DNA of 63,060 nt, from the NCBI GenBank assembly GCA_947501605.1, contig CANMWZ010000024.1, positions 1-63,060 on the forward strand, written 5' to 3'. The notes beneath the pieces are model-generated. The model made no database searches, was not told the DNA's origin, and worked only from the letters and a program-made list of their open reading frames with translations. Position 1 is the first letter of the stretch. Every line of letters starts with the position of its first letter. Origin of the DNA: Planctomycetota bacterium. GTDB taxonomy: Bacteria > Planctomycetota > UBA1135 > UBA2386. Made by a program: the position numbers and the translations under genes. Of this stretch, positions 2,483 through 9,286 are shown one piece after another.

Positions 2483-2641
2483 CAGCCACTCCGCCGGGCG
2501 CGGTCTTCTGGGAAGCGCCATCTGCGACACCCGAGAGCGGCTGGCGAGGACCGCCGCCAATCGCTCGAGTCGGCGGTGTGCTGTTTGGTCGCGCCTTTCG
2601 CCGCGTCCACTTTGGGCGTTGGCTCCGCGTCAGTTGGCTGC

Positions 2642-2705
2642 TCACCCCGTGGCGGAGGCCGGTCACCCCGTGGCGGAAGCCGGTCACCCCGTGGCGGGAG
2701 CCGGT
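2642..2705. repeat. 3 x 21-bp tandem repeat TCACCCCGTGGCGG(A/G)(G/A)GCCGG
   Basis: Units at 2642-2662, 2663-2683 and 2684-2704 with 1-2 mismatches. Intergenic. Confidence 0.9.
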
Positions 2706-2808
2706 AGATGCGGCCGGCCGTGGTGACGGGCTTGCCTGCAGCGGTGCTGCGTTGTTCTCTGTGGGACCCTCTCTGGTTCGGCGCGTCGCAGAGGCGCGCT
2801 TGCACTTC

Positions 2809-5235
2809 ATGACCCGTCGTCCCAACAAGCCCGAGCGTCCTTCCCGTCTGACCAAGGCCAAGAACGAGCCCAACGGTGATGAGTTGCCGATGCTCGAGCC
2901 GATCGACGACGGGATGGAGGCGTTGCCTTCGCTAGAACCCCTCGAGTCGCTCGAGTCTGAGCCGGTGTTTCCCGTCAAGGTCGCATGCGCGAGCAGCGAC
3001 GAAGCCGGCTTCGACACCGCAATCGCGATCGAAGTGCCGGACCTCGACAAGAAGCTGATGGTGGAGGCCGTGGCCGCGCCGCTCCAGTACAGCCTCGCGA
3101 ATGGCAAGGCCAACGTGCGGCACCATCGCGTGCTGGTGCGTTTTGCTGGCGACGCGATCATTGGCAGCGCCGTCAAAGAGCGCTGTGGTCAGATCCTCGA
3201 CGTGGCCAAGGCCCGAAAGGTGGTGGTGCGCCGCGGCTACGGCGATGAAGTCCTGTTCGAGCGCGACGCGCCGCGCGCGACCGTCGCAGTCCGTCGCGAC
3301 GGACTTACCACATCGGTCGAGGTCGACACCGGCGAGCTCGAGAGCGACGACCTCTCGATGGCTCTTCAGGGCGACTTGGTGCAGCTGACCAAAGAAGTGA
3401 AGGGCCAGAAGGTGCAGTTCACGTTCCGCGGCGGCGCGAAGCCCGGCCAGGATCTGCGCAACCTGATCGCGCAGATGACGCGCGACGCCGGTGCCCTGAG
3501 GGCGGCGCTGGGGCAGCGCGTGCTGTTCGACCGCGAGCTCGAGGATCGCGTCAAGCTCGAGGCGAAGGGTGACGTTGCGACCGTGCACGTGACGCCCAGT
3601 GCTGTCGACGCCGAGACCGAGGAGTCGCTTGCGATGAAGCTGTCGGCGCTCGGGGACCAACTGCGCGGCAAGGTCGTCCGGGTGTCCTTTGCCTTGGCGC
3701 CGAGTGAAGGCGTGCGCAGTTCGACGCTGCGCTATTGCACTGCCGGGGCGCCGCAGCGGGTCGAAATCCTGCGCGGTAGCGGCGTCGAGGTGGTGTGGCC
3801 ATCGCTGCTAACCGTGGAGGACCGCGGCGCCGAGACGGTGCTCCAGGTCGTGCAGAACGGCCGCGATCGAGCCGCGATGTTGGCGGTGTTCACGGCGGAG
3901 TGTCGCGACTACGCCCCGGTCATTGCCAACAAGAAGGTCCTGGTTGCTTGGCCTCTGGGAATGGTCGTGGACGAAGCGATCGAATCGGCATGCCTGCAGC
4001 CGCTGGTCGCCCAAGGTGCCACCGCCGTCGCCAGTCTGGTTGCCGGCGAGCGCGAGGTGTTTCATCCGGCCGCTGTGTCGGCCTCAGCCGATGGCGCGAC
4101 CCAGGTCGTTTGCGTCAACACCGAGAGCGGCAAGCCGGCAGAGTTGCAGCGCGCATTCGAGCGTTGGTTGCGGCGACACGGGCCGAGCTTGCACAACGCG
4201 ACGGCGCGGTTGTCCTTCCAAGGCGAGGTGCCTCCCTCGCGTTCGCTGGTTCGCGCGCTCGTCGAGCAATTGACGAAGGCGCAGCCAAGTCGTCTCGAGT
4301 TGGCCGACGGCAGTCGCCGCGACGTGGTCCTTCCCTTGCTCTTGAACGTCGCGGGTGATGCCCAGAGTGGTTGGTGTCTCCGAATGGAGCCAGCCGGTCG
4401 CGACGATGCGCAGGTGCAGCAGGCGATCGTGCGCGAGCTTGCCAATCTCACCGACCTCGGTGGTGCTGCTGTCACGGTTCTGCCATCAGCATTGCAGGAC
4501 GCGTTGATTCACGAGTTGGTGAAGCTCGCGGTGGGTTCTGTCGTGGTTGGTGGTGCCAACCCAGTTCAGGTCTATCCGGGGCTGCTGATGCCGTTGCGCC
4601 AGAAGGGCGGCCTCGGACTGCTGGCGCAGCCGACCGGCGATGCGGCCCTCTCGGTGCGCATGATCGAGCGCGAGTTGCCGCTGATCGAGAAGCGCGACGG
4701 CCCGATCGCGGGACAGATCGTCGAAGTTGCTTGGGCAGGTGCCGGGGCGGCAACAGAACCGTTTGCGACGCTGCTGCGGGCGCTGATTGCGCGCGGCGCG
4801 AAGCAGGTGTTCCTTCGCGACGGCCAAGACCACAGTTCCGGGCGCCGGACGCAAGTGCATCCGGAGATCGTCCCGGAGTTCGTGACCGTGCTGGGCCGCA
4901 AGGACGACGCCGTGCCGCCGCTGTTGATGCTGGGTATCGGCCTCGACGACGCTGCGGGCCACGAGGAGCGCCTACTGCAAGCCCTCGAGGGCCGCAGCGA
5001 GTTGCTCGTTGGCCGTCGCGTGCTCCTCGTGGGGCGGCGCGAAGGCGTGGATGTCCCGTTCGTCGGCGACGGGAAGCTCGTTCTGTCCGTGCGAGACAGG
5101 ATCGCAGCCGCGGCGGCGGCGACATTGGTGTTTGCGGGCAAGGACCGAAGTGGTCGCAGCTACTTCACGGTCGCGCAAAGCACCATCGCGGGGCTCGCGG
5201 TGGGCGCATCGTTTGCCGATCCCCGACCGCGTTGA
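2809..5235 (+). CDS. hypothetical protein with about 8 tandem ~90-aa STAS-like repeats
   Basis: 808 aa from ATG 2809. Repeated beta-beta-alpha-beta-alpha-beta pattern ending in V(L/V)(F/W/Y/H)(E/D/P). Confidence 0.8.
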   Translation: MTRRPNKPERPSRLTKAKNEPNGDELPMLEPIDDGMEALPSLEPLESLESEPVFPVKVACASSDEAGFDTAIAIEVPDLDKKLMVEAVAAPLQYSLANGKANVRHHRVLVRFAGDAIIGSAVKERCGQILDVAKARKVVVRRGYGDEVLFERDAPRATVAVRRDGLTTSVEVDTGELESDDLSMALQGDLVQLTKEVKGQKVQFTFRGGAKPGQDLRNLIAQMTRDAGALRAALGQRVLFDRELEDRVKLEAKGDVATVHVTPSAVDAETEESLAMKLSALGDQLRGKVVRVSFALAPSEGVRSSTLRYCTAGAPQRVEILRGSGVEVVWPSLLTVEDRGAETVLQVVQNGRDRAAMLAVFTAECRDYAPVIANKKVLVAWPLGMVVDEAIESACLQPLVAQGATAVASLVAGEREVFHPAAVSASADGATQVVCVNTESGKPAELQRAFERWLRRHGPSLHNATARLSFQGEVPPSRSLVRALVEQLTKAQPSRLELADGSRRDVVLPLLLNVAGDAQSGWCLRMEPAGRDDAQVQQAIVRELANLTDLGGAAVTVLPSALQDALIHELVKLAVGSVVVGGANPVQVYPGLLMPLRQKGGLGLLAQPTGDAALSVRMIERELPLIEKRDGPIAGQIVEVAWAGAGAATEPFATLLRALIARGAKQVFLRDGQDHSSGRRTQVHPEIVPEFVTVLGRKDDAVPPLLMLGIGLDDAAGHEERLLQALEGRSELLVGRRVLLVGRREGVDVPFVGDGKLVLSVRDRIAAAAAATLVFAGKDRSGRSYFTVAQSTIAGLAVGASFADPRPR

Positions 5236-5465: not shown

Positions 5466-6368
5466 CTAGCGGAGCCCGCGCAGCGCGTTGGCGTAGCCGG
5501 AATAGAACGACAGGATCGCGGTTGCGGCGGTGAGGACGCCGAGGGCGTAGGCGGCGGCTCCGATCGCTTTGGCAAGCGCCGTGGTCTTGCGTTTGGTGGT
5601 GTCGCGCCGGCGCTGGATCGCGCGCTGCAGCGCCTCCTCGAGCGTTCCGCTGTGCTCGCCCAAGGCTAGCAAGGTCAGCGTCTCGGCGTCGACTGCGAGC
5701 GTTTGCAGGAGGGACTCGTGGAGCCCGCGGCCTTGCTGTAGCAGCGCGTCGGCGAGCTGCAGCCGGTCGCGCACGGCGCCCACGCCGCTGGCGCTGACCG
5801 CGCGCGGGTTGGCTTGCAGCAGCGGCACCCCCGAGGCATAGAGGCTATGGAGCACTTCGAGGTAGGGGAGCTCGCCGAGTTCGCGGATCAGCGGACCGAT
5901 CAGCGGCAATGACAGCGCGCGGGGGCTGCCGTTGGCGATCGCATGTCGGAGCCACAGGGTGAATGCCGCGATCGTGGCCACTACCGCACCCACGACCCAT
6001 GGCAGCCAGTGAGCCCCGAGTTTGGCAGCGATCAAGGAGACCAGGGTTGCGAGAAATAGCAGCAGGGCCGGATACCGAAGCGAGGCGATCACCGTCCGGG
6101 CGAACTCCGCCTGCTGTTCGCGCTGGTCCGCAAGTCGAAGCAAGGCGGCCGGCGATCGGCCTGTCTGCCACGAGGCGACCAAGACCGTTTCCTCGATGGC
6201 GTCGAGCTTCACGCCGCGACGAGGCAGCAGTTGCACCAACTGCCGATCGCCATCGTGCGGGTCCCCGCCGTAGCTGGGCGGGGGGAGACCGGCATCGATC
6301 GCCGACGCGAGATCGCGCATCGCCAGGGCCGCGCGTTCGTCGCGCTTGGGTTGGAGTCGGAACAACAT
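5466..6368 (-). CDS. type II secretion F / PilC-like inner membrane platform protein
   Basis: Two T2SSF-like domains (LASAIDAGLP...; LYASGVPLLQA...LLALGEHSGTLEEAL), LRYPALL motif, three TM segments. Confidence 0.85.
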   Translation of the reverse strand: MLFRLQPKRDERAALAMRDLASAIDAGLPPPSYGGDPHDGDRQLVQLLPRRGVKLDAIEETVLVASWQTGRSPAALLRLADQREQQAEFARTVIASLRYPALLLFLATLVSLIAAKLGAHWLPWVVGAVVATIAAFTLWLRHAIANGSPRALSLPLIGPLIRELGELPYLEVLHSLYASGVPLLQANPRAVSASGVGAVRDRLQLADALLQQGRGLHESLLQTLAVDAETLTLLALGEHSGTLEEALQRAIQRRRDTTKRKTTALAKAIGAAAYALGVLTAATAILSFYSGYANALRGLR

Positions 6369-6428
6369 CGTGGGGTTTGGTGTGCGGGGGTTTTCCGACG
6401 TACGCCAGGCTGTGGTATTGCCGTGAAC

Positions 6429-6911
6429 ATGACAACGCAACCGCCACACGATCCGATTGCAGCCGCCGGTGCTCAGTCACCGCCCGATGCCGATGAGGCG
6501 ATGGTACGGATCGGGGCCGTGTCGGCGCGGTTGCTTGCAGGCGCGGTGAGCAAGCGCACGATGGAGGCGCTACAGCGGACCGTGCACGCAAGCCCAAACG
6601 AGTACCCTTGGCAGGTGGTGAACCAAGTGGTGCTGGCCGAGCCTTGCGATGCGCAGGATCTGGCGCAGCGAGCCCTGCGGGCCCAGCGCGATTGGGTGCT
6701 GCGCGGCGGTCGGGAGAACCCGGGGAAACCTCTTGGGCTCAAGGCGAAGACCGTCGTGGCCAAGCTCGTGGCGCAGGCCCTTTTCCTCTCCCTCTTCACC
6801 GCGACCGTTCTGCTCTTGCTTCTGCTGGTGAAGCACAAATGGCCGGAGCTGACCATCTACGCTGCCCTCGACTGGTGCTATTCCGTCTTCCCGAACCTTG
6901 TCCCCAAGTAG
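6429..6911 (+). CDS. hypothetical membrane protein
   Basis: 160 aa from ATG 6429 with a C-terminal TM helix (ALFLSLFTATVLLLLLLV). Divergent from the T2SSF gene. Confidence 0.7.
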   Translation: MTTQPPHDPIAAAGAQSPPDADEAMVRIGAVSARLLAGAVSKRTMEALQRTVHASPNEYPWQVVNQVVLAEPCDAQDLAQRALRAQRDWVLRGGRENPGKPLGLKAKTVVAKLVAQALFLSLFTATVLLLLLLVKHKWPELTIYAALDWCYSVFPNLVPK

Positions 6912-6934
6912 GGGAAAGATTTGATGGGAGAGTG

Positions 6935-6962
6935 TTGAAATCTCCTGCGGTGTAGGCATACT
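6935..6962 (+). promoter_or_regulatory. putative sigma70 promoter
   Basis: TTGAAA (6935-6940), 16-nt spacer, CATACT (6957-6962) in a locally AT-richer intergenic patch. Confidence 0.5.
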
Positions 6963-6965
6963 CAC

Positions 6966-7257
6966 CAGCCTGGATTGCGCGTGACGCCGGCTAGCCTGGT
7001 TGACGCTGCGCGCGAGCCGGGTGGGTTGCAGCGCAAGCTGCGACCTGCGAAACGCTCTATGTCAAAGACTGGCCTTTCTGACCAAAAGGCCAGGTCGGTA
7101 GCCGAGGTTCGCTTCGGTGGCCGATCTAGCAGACACAAGAAGGGTTGAGGCTGTGTGGTGGAGACCAGTATCCCCCTCCCTAACCGCCCTCTCCATCGCG
7201 TAGCCTCGCCCGCATTCACGGGCCTCAGTTCTGACCGGCTGAGGCCCGACTTTTTTT
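6966..7257 (+). ncRNA. candidate structured ncRNA or cis-regulatory leader (family not recognised)
   Basis: Lies in a 400-bp intergenic gap, bounded by the promoter and an intrinsic terminator. Hairpins with a GCAA loop (7024-7045), a CUGACCA loop (7069-7093) and a UUCG loop (7093-7126). Confidence 0.55.
7219..7257 (+). terminator. intrinsic (rho-independent) terminator
   Basis: Stem CGGGCCTCAG/CTGAGGCCCG followed by AC and T7. Confidence 0.85.
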
Positions 7258-7312
7258 CTGCGGCCCTTCACGGTTAAGGTCCGGCGACCGCTGTCGAAGC
7301 GGCTGCGAATTC

Positions 7313-7918
7313 ATGACTACACCAGGCTTTCGAAAGGGTCGGTCTTCGGGCGGTCGGGGGCCGGCGGCGCGCGACGGCGGCGAAGGCTTCGTCAGCAGTT
7401 CGCTCTTCAGTCAGGCGCAGATCCTGCACTTGATGAAGACTGAGTTCGCCCGCTCTCGGCGCCATGGCTTTCCGCTCGGCTGCATGTTGCTCCAGGTCGA
7501 TCGGGTCACCCAGCTGATCGATCTCTACGGTGCGGACCTGCGTCAGACCCTGCGCCAGACCCTGAGCCAGATGGTGCGCGAGAAGACGCGCGGTGCCGAC
7601 CTGATGGGCCTCATCAACGAGGACCGCTACATGTTGGTTCTGCCCCACACCGCGTTGGAGCCCACGCGGGTTGTGGCCGACCGCCTGCACACGTTGTTCC
7701 GCGAGTACGAGGTGTCCGTCGATGGTCGCGCACTCGATCTGACCGTCAGCGTCGGCTTGTCGGCGACCGGCCAGAGCGAGGCGATGTTCTTCGATACGTT
7801 GGTTGGTCAAGCCGAGGCGGCGCTCGACTTCGCGATCGAGCGCGGCGGCAATCGCATTGCCTCGTTCGGCGAAACCCAACTGCTAGGCAACGACCCAACG
7901 CGCGAGCCCGGTTCCTGA
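7313..7918 (+). CDS. stand-alone degenerate GGDEF-domain protein (probable c-di-GMP receptor)
   Basis: GGDEF fold motifs (EFARSRRHG.PL, LTVSVGL, AEAALDFAIERGGNR). The active site reads NEDRY, while the I-site RxxD (RGAD) is intact. Confidence 0.85.
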   Translation: MTTPGFRKGRSSGGRGPAARDGGEGFVSSSLFSQAQILHLMKTEFARSRRHGFPLGCMLLQVDRVTQLIDLYGADLRQTLRQTLSQMVREKTRGADLMGLINEDRYMLVLPHTALEPTRVVADRLHTLFREYEVSVDGRALDLTVSVGLSATGQSEAMFFDTLVGQAEAALDFAIERGGNRIASFGETQLLGNDPTREPGS

Positions 7919-7921
7919 TCC

Positions 7922-9286
7922 ATGGGCGAGCGACCGTCGATGCGCGTGCTGCTAGTCGAGGACGAGATCTCGATCGCCGTCACCCTCCGTGATGATCTCG
8001 AGGAGGCTGGCCACTTGGTCGAGCACACCGCCGATGGCCAGCAGGCGATCGACATCCTGCAGCAGCAAGCCTTCGATTGCGTGATCACCGACGTTCGGCT
8101 GCCAAGCAAGGACGGGTTGCAGGTCCTACAGGCGGCAAAGCGCGCGCGCCCAGACACCGAAGTGCTGATGATGACGGGCTATGCCACTGTCGAACAGGCG
8201 GTGGAAGCGATGCGACTTGGCGCCGACGACTACATCCAGAAGCCTTTCCTCAACGCGCACGTGCTCGATCGGCTCGCGCGCATCGGTCGCGTGCGTGCGT
8301 TGATCCAGGAGAACGCGCTGCTGCGCCAGGAGCTCGATGGCGGTCGGGGCAGCTTGCCCGGCGTGATTGGCAACAGTCGCGCGATGGACACGGTGATCAA
8401 GACTGTCCGCACGGTCGCGCAGAACGATGCCTCCGTCCTGATCGAGGGCGAGTCGGGTACTGGCAAGGAGCGGATCGCCCGCGCAATCCACACGTTGTCT
8501 CACCGCAAGGACAAGCCGTTCGTAGCGCTTTCCTGCGGGGCGCTGCCTGACACCCTTCTGGAGACCGAGTTGTTCGGCCACGAGAAGGGTGCATTCACGG
8601 ATGCGCAGAAGTTGCGGCGCGGCCGCTTCGAGATCGCATCCGGTGGCACGATCTTCCTCGACGACATCGACGACATGCCGCTGTCGGTCCAGGTCAAGCT
8701 GCTGCGGGTGCTGCAAGAGCGCGAGTTCGAGCGCGTCGGCGGTGAGCAGCTGATCAAGGTCGACATCCGCGTCGTCTCTGCGACCAAAGTGCCACTGATG
8801 GACCTGGTCCGGCAGCAGCGCTTCCGCGAAGACCTCTTCTATCGACTCAACGTCGTACCGGTGCGCTTGCCGCCGCTGCGTGAGCGCGACGGCGACGTGG
8901 CGCTCCTCGCGCAGCATTTCGTCGAGAAGCTCGGTGCTGGCCGGCACTACACCATCAAGACGGATGTGCTCGAGTCGATGCTGGGCTACAGCTGGCCAGG
9001 CAACGTGCGCGAGCTCGAAAACCACGTCGCCCAGGCGATTGCCATGGCCGGGGGCGCCACCGTGTTGAAGCGCGAGCACTTGCTCCCGGTCGACAAGACC
9101 CGCCGCGCGGCGCTCGAACCGCCGACCCAGCTGCAGTCCTTGCGCGAGATCATGGTGAACGCCGAGCGGGAGCACCTGAAAGTCGTGCTCAAGGCAGTGG
9201 GCGGCCATCGGACCAAGGCTGCATCCGTCCTCGGCATCAGTCGCAAAGTCCTGTGGGAGAAGCTGCGCGACTACGGCATCGAATGA
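7922..9286 (+). CDS. sigma54-dependent response regulator (NtrC/AtoC family)
   Basis: REC domain (VLLVEDE, DVRLP, KPF), Walker A GESGTGKE, GAFTDA loop, WPGNVRELEN, Fis-type HTH. Confidence 0.95.
   Translation: MGERPSMRVLLVEDEISIAVTLRDDLEEAGHLVEHTADGQQAIDILQQQAFDCVITDVRLPSKDGLQVLQAAKRARPDTEVLMMTGYATVEQAVEAMRLGADDYIQKPFLNAHVLDRLARIGRVRALIQENALLRQELDGGRGSLPGVIGNSRAMDTVIKTVRTVAQNDASVLIEGESGTGKERIARAIHTLSHRKDKPFVALSCGALPDTLLETELFGHEKGAFTDAQKLRRGRFEIASGGTIFLDDIDDMPLSVQVKLLRVLQEREFERVGGEQLIKVDIRVVSATKVPLMDLVRQQRFREDLFYRLNVVPVRLPPLRERDGDVALLAQHFVEKLGAGRHYTIKTDVLESMLGYSWPGNVRELENHVAQAIAMAGGATVLKREHLLPVDKTRRAALEPPTQLQSLREIMVNAEREHLKVVLKAVGGHRTKAASVLGISRKVLWEKLRDYGIE

Follow-up and report, generated by a model that had tools for sequence, protein, structure and literature searches.

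A small RNA gene of uncultured Planctomycetota that matches no Rfam family and presents a nearly invariant C-rich loop

The window analysed here, a stretch of 63,060 nucleotides from the assembly of an uncultured Planctomycetota bacterium, carries on its forward strand a predicted non-coding RNA of about 290 nt (6968-7258), both ends of which are predicted, and which RNA-library contigs cover from 6994 onward. Upstream of it lie a large ORF of about 800 aa without a Pfam match (2578-5235), a T2SSF/PilC-family gene recognized by translation and Pfam (5466-6449, reverse strand), which diverges from the RNA locus, and a forward-strand ORF of 160 aa (6429-6911) that matches no Pfam or NCBIfam family and is syntenic in 54 of 86 loci. 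The 160-aa protein is conserved and has a hydrophobic C-terminal segment; its synteny with the GGDEF operon extends to family f10, in which it seems to be longer. Downstream, on the same strand as the RNA, a degenerate GGDEF-domain gene (7313-7918; PF00990 and TIGR00254) is followed by an NtrC-type sigma54 activator gene identified by Pfam/profile match (7922-9286). The GGDEF motif itself is replaced (NEDRY here) and the RxxD I-site is kept, as it is in 77 of 78 homologous proteins, whose catalytic motif is likewise replaced; the protein is probably a c-di-GMP receptor. In the family to which the window belongs this protein has a short G/R-rich N-terminal tail (MTRPGFRKGRPGG-like), and in several lineages its gene precedes an NtrC-type activator.

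The RNA is an independent gene with its own promoter and terminator and no conserved ORF. Its sigma70-type promoter (6935-6962, forward strand), with a -35 element TTGAAA at 6935-6940 and a -10 element CATACT at 6957-6962, was the one site returned by a motif search that gave 0.2 sites in shuffles, and TTGA(A/C)A with a CATGAT- or CATACT-like -10 element recurs ahead of homologues. The predicted transcript opens with a lineage-specific 5' domain (6968-7141), which covaries in its long forms and consists of a long stem (about 6968-7022), a GNRA hairpin (7024-7045), a GCGAAACGC mini-hairpin, a hairpin with a CUGACCA loop (7069-7093) and a UUCG hairpin (7093-7126). It is followed by a conserved, covarying core hairpin (7142-7211), which in the fold of the window sequence comprises 22 bp and a 25-nt C-rich loop (7165-7189). 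Within this loop lies the core CCCUCCC(U/C)AACCGCC (7174-7188), the presumed seed or binding site, predicted to be 92% unpaired in the same fold. An intrinsic terminator with a conserved CUGACC loop (7219-7258, with the hairpin at 7219-7248 and a U-tract after it), recognized by motif search and covariation, ends about 55 nt ahead of the GGDEF gene ATG at 7313. As a whole, the RNA region folds far better than chance (z = -5.85, with 0 of 100 shuffles as good).

The initial annotation of this DNA, made from the letters of the sequence, had named a sigma70-like promoter, the long stem, the GNRA, CUGACCA-loop and UUCG-capped hairpins, and a textbook terminator some 55 nt before the GGDEF gene, and each of these is borne out, at the place given, by motif search or fold. 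It had also proposed a closing pair between 6966-6971 and 7148-7153, which fails because 7148-7153 belongs to another helix; forcing the pair costs 13.5 kcal/mol. The C-rich tract had been seen (7171-7195), but its place as the loop of a long hairpin, and the most conserved part of the RNA, had been missed.

Covariance models of Rfam 15 at gathering score gave no match anywhere in the window, in agreement with the earlier view that the sequence bears no signature of RNase P, tmRNA, SRP, 6S or a common riboswitch, and a scan of the window in E-value mode gave chance-level matches only, up to E = 10. Eighteen homologue loci likewise yielded 0 matches at the gathering threshold and only chance-level matches in E-value mode. 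The families so excluded comprise, as far as they are curated, Rli31, RsaE, Pxr, IhtA and the riboswitches. This is a real small RNA gene of uncultured Planctomycetota, and it matches no Rfam family. That it is instead a diverged housekeeping RNA (6S, SRP, RNase P or tmRNA), a telomerase- or retron-like template, or a gene for a small peptide is extremely improbable, and these readings are largely refuted. The housekeeping RNAs are accounted for elsewhere in the genome, where RNase P, SRP and tmRNA were found together with a full-length 6S-like match below the cut-off. The loop contains CCCUAACC, which we take to resemble a telomerase template, but there is no TTAGGG tandem repeat and the relevant base is C in other lineages; for a retron-like template, no reverse transcriptase gene was found among the neighbours examined. 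A 29-codon ORF does start at 7059 in the window, but only 4 of 25 long forms share its ATG. As a separate observation, the 6S-like match (G000:C67:2020-2210, reverse strand, locus L172; 37.7 bits, E 7.6e-6, below the Rfam cut-off) is probably a diverged 6S RNA of this lineage.

The core stem covaries strongly, which answers the test of homologues that had been suggested with the initial annotation. Among 53 sequences, 11 of 17 pairs have two-sided changes and none of 500 shuffles reaches the covariation score, and 92.8% of cells are paired, as against 40-52% in slid controls; the terminator has two-sided changes in 8 of 12 pairs (37 sequences), and in a phylum-wide set of 70 sequences all 15 stem pairs vary, with two-sided change in 291 cells versus 114 when shuffled, all of these being counts that include kin, and hence are non-independent and not probabilities. 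In contrast to the stem, the loop core is invariant in 14 of 15 columns across several deep Planctomycetota lineages, in the same 70 sequences, which were gathered by the loop motif or a motif-weighted model, so that the invariance is partly due to selection; the negatives of a broader model (38 of 40 genomes) limit this effect and do not remove it. A stem that varies with compensation while its loop stays fixed argues for a trans-acting sRNA that works through the loop.

The remainder of the RNA is more plastic. Among 21 long-form homologues, 18 of 25 consensus pairs of the 5' domain have two-sided change, and in other lineages the domain is replaced or absent; by this comparison of sequences, its hairpins are lineage-specific additions. 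The CUGACC terminator loop is found in 61 of 75 U-variant loci versus 1 of 41 C-variant loci, and CUGACC occurs twice as a loop in the long form. Predicted lengths in the U-variant set range from 151 to 429 nt (66 loci), and the shortest homologues, at some C-variant loci, are about 85-110 nt by reading of the loci and consist of little beyond the core hairpin and a U-tract.

One genome per species was scanned for an exact 19-mer, which gave 66 loci, nearly all in Planctomycetota assemblies; two loci from that scan, L095 and L121, look like chance matches and were set aside. BLAST with positions 6900-7320 matched 36 of 36 genomes of the same family, one of them weakly and only in the 5' part, and 46 of 61 genomes overall. 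The 17-nt loop, at no more than one mismatch, is present in 54 of 55 f1 genomes, 8 of 8 f7, 2 of 3 f8, 1 of 1 f3 and 1 of 1 f6, and families f10 (5/135), f9 (1/40) and f2 (1/4) gave only mismatched loop matches without the hairpin. Where it is found, the loop is mostly present as one exact copy per genome, and one genome has two. Across the phylum, a covariance model of the hairpin was positive in 21 of 150 genomes, with 18 matches outside the class, in every one of which a hairpin bears the loop, altered by one U-to-C change, and a U-tract or terminator comes after it. With a 20-nt pattern, matches were obtained in 54 of 400 phylum genomes, versus 4 with the reversed control. When 40 genomes selected as negatives were scanned with a broader model, 38 gave no match at E<=0.5 and two gave weak ones (E 0.03-0.4). 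On a nusG tree, a quick version with weak deep support that was used only to recognize several separate clades, RNA-positive genomes fall in several clades and negative families are nested among them. The RNA is also found in metagenomes, where 66 of 80 fetched pattern matches score at least 37 bits and at least 118 pattern matches were listed.

Seventeen RNA runs from 10 studies contain part of the window stretch. Four of the 19 runs listed were examined, and in three of them, each from a different study, RNA-library contigs extend over the RNA from position 6994 onward; two runs also contain related homologues. Transcript ends, strand and level cannot be read from such contigs, and the libraries may include DNA. 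The contigs of run X8 cover downstream genes only. In run X4, contig depth, a measure that cannot rank genes, is higher over the RNA than over the GGDEF gene, and two contigs of this run, from one study, end at 7243. No contig of the four runs covers 6300-6970, although such a hole proves nothing. Contigs bridge the terminator into the downstream region in 3 of the 4 runs, which is the main evidence for some read-through, although DNA in the library could also explain it.

Transcription through the terminator would be expected of a cis-acting attenuator or riboswitch, controlled for example by c-di-GMP or a protein, for the degenerate GGDEF-sigma54 activator operon, which the initial annotation had offered beside a novel sRNA. 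The arrangement of the locus also favours such an element, since the GGDEF gene is downstream of the RNA at 78 of 86 loci of the first round, at 28 of 42 distant ones and, within 400-nt flanks, at 47 of 80 from metagenomes. The two nevertheless dissociate in both directions. There is no GGDEF gene nearby in 14 of the 42 distant loci, no GGDEF-like gene at E<=1e-18 in any of 19 RNA-bearing genomes from eight other families, and in several families convergent or unrelated genes follow the RNA; conversely, all 34 of 34 genomes of family f10 have a GGDEF match, and the upstream ORF, the GGDEF gene and the activator are kept in order, but the RNA is missing from the syntenic loci among those listed and 7 of 7 genomes gave no model match. 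In some genomes the RNA and the GGDEF gene are separated by other, inserted genes. The downstream operon probably has a promoter of its own, with a -10-like hexamer TAAGGT at 7275-7280 (forward strand), and the corresponding motif [GC]TAnnnT is found between terminator and GGDEF start in 30 of 48 loci, as compared to a shuffle mean of 6.6 and a maximum of 13. In the window sequence, no competitive antiterminator was found: the terminator pairs form with probabilities of 0.94-1.0, a fold in which it is blocked is 13.5 kcal/mol less favourable, and the best alternative leaves the conserved loop untouched. Rfam scans of the window gave no match to a c-di-GMP riboswitch family, what is conserved in the RNA is a flat loop rather than a pocket formed by a multi-junction, and many lineages lack the 5' part with its several hairpins. 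Because RNA and gene dissociate both ways, the operon has its own -10-like motif, and no antiterminator competes, the linkage looks like old synteny rather than cis control, and an attenuator or riboswitch is very unlikely. The proposal of a novel sRNA, on the other hand, has gained from the covariation, the conservation, the absence of an Rfam match and the RNA-library contigs.

Some details of gene order at these loci are recorded here for their own sake. The inserted genes were seen at locus L022 (genome G023) and locus L042 (G012), and the one in L022 is, judged by eye from its sequence, presumably tyrosyl-tRNA-synthetase-like. At locus L038 (G041) the divergent gene upstream of the RNA, adjoining the GGDEF-sigma54 activator operon, looks like rpoN by its N-terminal likeness.

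The promoter of the RNA overlaps a second element. Positions 6921-6950 (forward strand), flanking the -35 element, hold a degenerate copy of a GTGG(A) repeat array with an 11-bp period, a candidate DnaA or MraZ site that matches with two mismatches in the window and strongly in homologues. At no more than one mismatch, TGTGGAWAA occurs in 41 of 78 homologue promoters versus 0 of 118 control promoters, all controls being from the window's genome; GTGG at -12 and +10 around the -35 element shows the same bias, with one at the scored positions in 55 of 78 homologues versus 2 of 30 control promoters, and spacings of 11 and 22 dominate in the homologues. DnaA box arrays with 2-bp spacers fit the 11-bp period, as described in PMC6070618 (the box consensus used here was the 9-mer TT[A/T]TNCACA, arrayed with 2-bp spacers over the promoter), and so do the direct GTGG repeats of MraZ, spaced about one helical turn apart according to bioRxiv 10.1101/2022.02.09.479790. 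DnaA was at first preferred on spacing, but the mraZ promoters of 4 of 4 relatives have GTGG at spacings of 10-11, and spacing therefore does not separate the two. Against DnaA are the two mismatches of the window site and the scarcity of DnaA-type boxes upstream of dnaA itself (0 of 6 genomes, and 9 of 29 in a later set); against MraZ, the mraZ promoters of the four relatives do not contain the 9-mer, and MraZ was not found in genome G049, whose RNA promoter has a perfect DnaA box. Control of the RNA promoter by DnaA or MraZ, both of which point to the cell cycle, is a further proposal, and a weaker one than those made below on the mode of action. Three observations on these regulators belong here: none of the 3 f99 genomes searched (G609, G570 and G482; 90-94% complete) gave a DnaA match at E<=1e-40, and yet the RNA is present in them; in the window's genome an mraZ promoter with GTGG repeats (G000:C4:12560-13165) heads a near-complete division and cell wall cluster; and the 568-nt gap between dnaA and dnaN (G000:C25:25327-25895) contains no DnaA box at up to one mismatch.

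Since the sole fixed part is an exposed, CCUCC-bearing loop on a stand-alone RNA, an anti-Shine-Dalgarno base-pairing sRNA is the simplest reading, and that the RNA acts in trans, its loop pairing with G-rich ribosome-binding regions of mRNAs, is somewhat better than an even proposition. The RNA would be transcribed from its own sigma70-type promoter and end at the intrinsic terminator, and the long stable stem would hold the C-rich loop open. The conserved, unpaired motif (UCCC/CCUCC) in that loop would then offer an anti-Shine-Dalgarno core, CCUCC, to G-rich stretches at or near the ribosome-binding sites of several mRNAs, and the pairing would most likely block initiation without Hfq, as staphylococcal RsaE does; Rsa RNAs are described as Hfq-independent in PMC2790875. 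Neither Hfq nor CsrA was found in the window's genome, which is 91% complete. The analysis shows the sequence and structure of the RNA, its conservation, its independence of the gene beside it and its presence in RNA libraries; the transcript ends, the base-pairing mode, the translational repression and every target are here what we infer.

A search for targets was made in one genome scanned whole, with crude gene calls of our own (3543 genes). The most favourable pairing there is with nusG (-29.2 kcal/mol, first of 3502 genes), but this candidate was rejected, as the pairing is already weakened in the same genus and the site is not kept across 80 genomes; average nusG pairing is -15.9 kcal/mol in RNA-positive and -12.7 kcal/mol in RNA-negative genomes. 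In a gene for an OmpA-family lipoprotein, a seed match of 8-10 nt covers the Shine-Dalgarno site. This match is present in 8 of 27 f1 genomes and in a single f7 genome, and in none of 6 RNA-negative genomes; it is missing from the other 19 f1 genomes, and the gene is a candidate target for a subclade only. Other candidates were discarded: the spoVG leader pairs no better in RNA-positive than in RNA-negative genomes (-19.6 versus -19.2 kcal/mol, 31 genomes), in only 4 of 55 cases does the 5' coding region of the GGDEF gene do better than its synonymous shuffles, an RdgC-like gene has TAGGGAGG over its Shine-Dalgarno site in the window's genome and only 1 of 5 relatives, and dnaA, dnaN and mraZ of the window's genome pair within background. 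Of 29 dnaA leaders, 14 have a complement of at least 8 nt on the sense strand and 3 on the antisense strand, a difference that strand composition could explain, and the positions are scattered and unaligned; the leader in genome G339 (locus L552) has an 11-nt perfect complement of the C-variant loop inside a small leader hairpin, a single case among the 29. Other dnaA leaders of family f69 have shorter GCGGUUG matches at differing positions. Seed matches of at least 10 nt number 3, as compared to 0-10 for shuffled seeds, which is no excess, and a complement-plus-start-codon pattern in 80 genomes showed no excess over its reversed control among the matches listed. Among the targets searched, none is conserved as widely as the loop, and fifteen nearly invariant bases exceed what a changing set of mRNA targets would normally fix, which counts against the pairing reading.

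Near-total invariance of the loop over deep lineages, together with no conserved mRNA site, would be explained if the loop paired with an RNA that is itself invariant, ribosomal or otherwise housekeeping, and so modulated translation globally. With RNase P, SRP, the 6S candidate and tmRNA the duplexes are broken and reach only -17 to -21 kcal/mol, within the range of ordinary genes, figures that cover non-rRNA partners, as marker motifs found no rRNA operon in the assembly. No exact complement of 12 nt or longer was seen among the tRNAs listed, and that entire families have lost the RNA speaks against its being essential; such pairing with a fixed RNA is judged very unlikely.

One copy of the core hairpin resides in a phage. 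Viral contig IMGVR_UViG_3300038548_000477 (L340:1462-1542) contains it at 43.3 bits, the only match of that scan; four viral pattern matches, L341-L344, were motif-selected and score 16-28 bits, and were left out of the counts. In this contig the hairpin is flanked by head-morphogenesis and scaffold genes, which run on the other strand; a small ORF for a BamE-like lipoprotein comes after it, and a CUGACC motif lies directly upstream. Such a copy could act as a mimic or, on a late transcript, as a sponge.

The contrast between an invariant loop and no conserved complement also suits a protein-binding decoy or scaffold RNA, the loop of which would be the site of a conserved C-rich-RNA-binding protein; the RNA would titrate this protein as CsrB does its own, or as Rli31 does SpoVG. 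CUGACC, which forms two loops in the long form and recurs beside the phage copy, may be a second, lineage-specific site. SpoVG is encoded in the window's genome, and SpoVG is reported in PMC4959528 to bind the C-rich loop of Rli31 in vitro. Its distribution does not follow that of the RNA: SpoVG matches over the cut-off come from 32 of 42 genomes with the RNA and from 22 of 38 without it, and none was found in the RNA-positive families f3, f6, f8, f20, f54 and f91, so that SpoVG was rejected as an obligatory partner (80 genomes). A Csr/Rsm sponge was rejected as well, the fold having no GGA loops and CsrA, like Hfq, not being found in the window's genome. Moreover, each RNA has one C-rich loop, whereas known sponge RNAs repeat their binding site. 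A decoy or scaffold is on balance a tentative alternative, clearly less probable than a base-pairing sRNA. With regard to SpoVG itself, matches occur in 55 of 80 Planctomycetota genomes, G040 has eleven weak SpoVG-like matches, and the homologue in the window's genome (G000:C47:7526-7876, reverse strand; L348) has an internal insertion with two CxxC motifs and an acidic tail.

The literature on small RNAs of Planctomycetes/Planctomycetota, on the motifs and on related systems yielded no description of this RNA, although large motif catalogues held in supplements or subscription journals could list it. The control of division in Planctomycetota is an open question, and an sRNA behind a DnaA- or MraZ-type array would give a concrete handle on it. 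Table 1 of PMC9029176, an Rfam-based survey, gives only 8 annotated sRNA families for the Planctomycetes-Verrucomicrobia-Chlamydiae group. With this RNA the group gains another family, unusually deeply conserved and already provided with a covariance model. It is puzzling that 15 nt of the loop stay invariant when no mRNA complement is conserved with them, and the presence of a copy in a phage suggests that this loop is worth hijacking. A more speculative proposal, and one we hold doubtful, would join these strands: an ancient riboregulator of several uncultured Planctomycetota lineages, under DnaA or MraZ control, linking the status of replication or division, through one invariant loop, to the translation of a set of mRNAs for the envelope and the cell cycle, or else to a conserved protein that binds RNA, and captured as a loop hairpin by at least one phage for use as a mimic or sponge.

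Four known systems resemble the RNA in part. Rli31 of Listeria monocytogenes, as presented in PMC4959528, likewise combines a long hairpin, C-rich in its apical loop, with a terminator hairpin after it; its host encodes SpoVG, and its real targets have been elusive. The Rli31 loop is complementary to the spoVG leader at 14 of 14 positions, whereas the window RNA has no complement there, and the window RNA further differs in its want of an Rfam match, its large and variable 5' domain, its phylum, and a SpoVG that does not tightly co-occur; membership in an Rli31-SpoVG module was rejected on both the complementarity and the co-occurrence. Pxr of Myxococcus xanthus, in the account of PMC5684412, is a stem-loop sRNA that adjoins the gene of an NtrC-type activator; its host lacks Hfq, its function rests on one loop and its targets are unknown, but it lies downstream of the activator and has a predicted sigma54 promoter, whereas the window RNA lies upstream of the operon behind a sigma70-type promoter and does not match the Rfam Pxr model. 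CcnA of Caulobacter crescentus shares a C-rich loop as the active part and a tie to the cell cycle, which the promoter array also suggests here; according to PMC8959179, CcnA is located at the replication origin, is presumed to be CtrA-dependent, and has ctrA and gcrA as demonstrated targets, whereas here the regulator is proposed from motifs. The UCCC-motif sRNAs, namely RsaE and RNAIII of Firmicutes and CyaR of Salmonella, have, as described in PMC2790875, an unpaired, conserved, UCCC-bearing C-rich motif able to pair with the Shine-Dalgarno sequence, although theirs are short, repeated UCCC boxes, as compared to a single 15-nt invariant loop here, and neither sequence nor model matches. Set beside these systems, the RNA would most simply be an sRNA family that is new to the catalogues but of a known kind, that of the base-pairing sRNAs with a C-rich loop.
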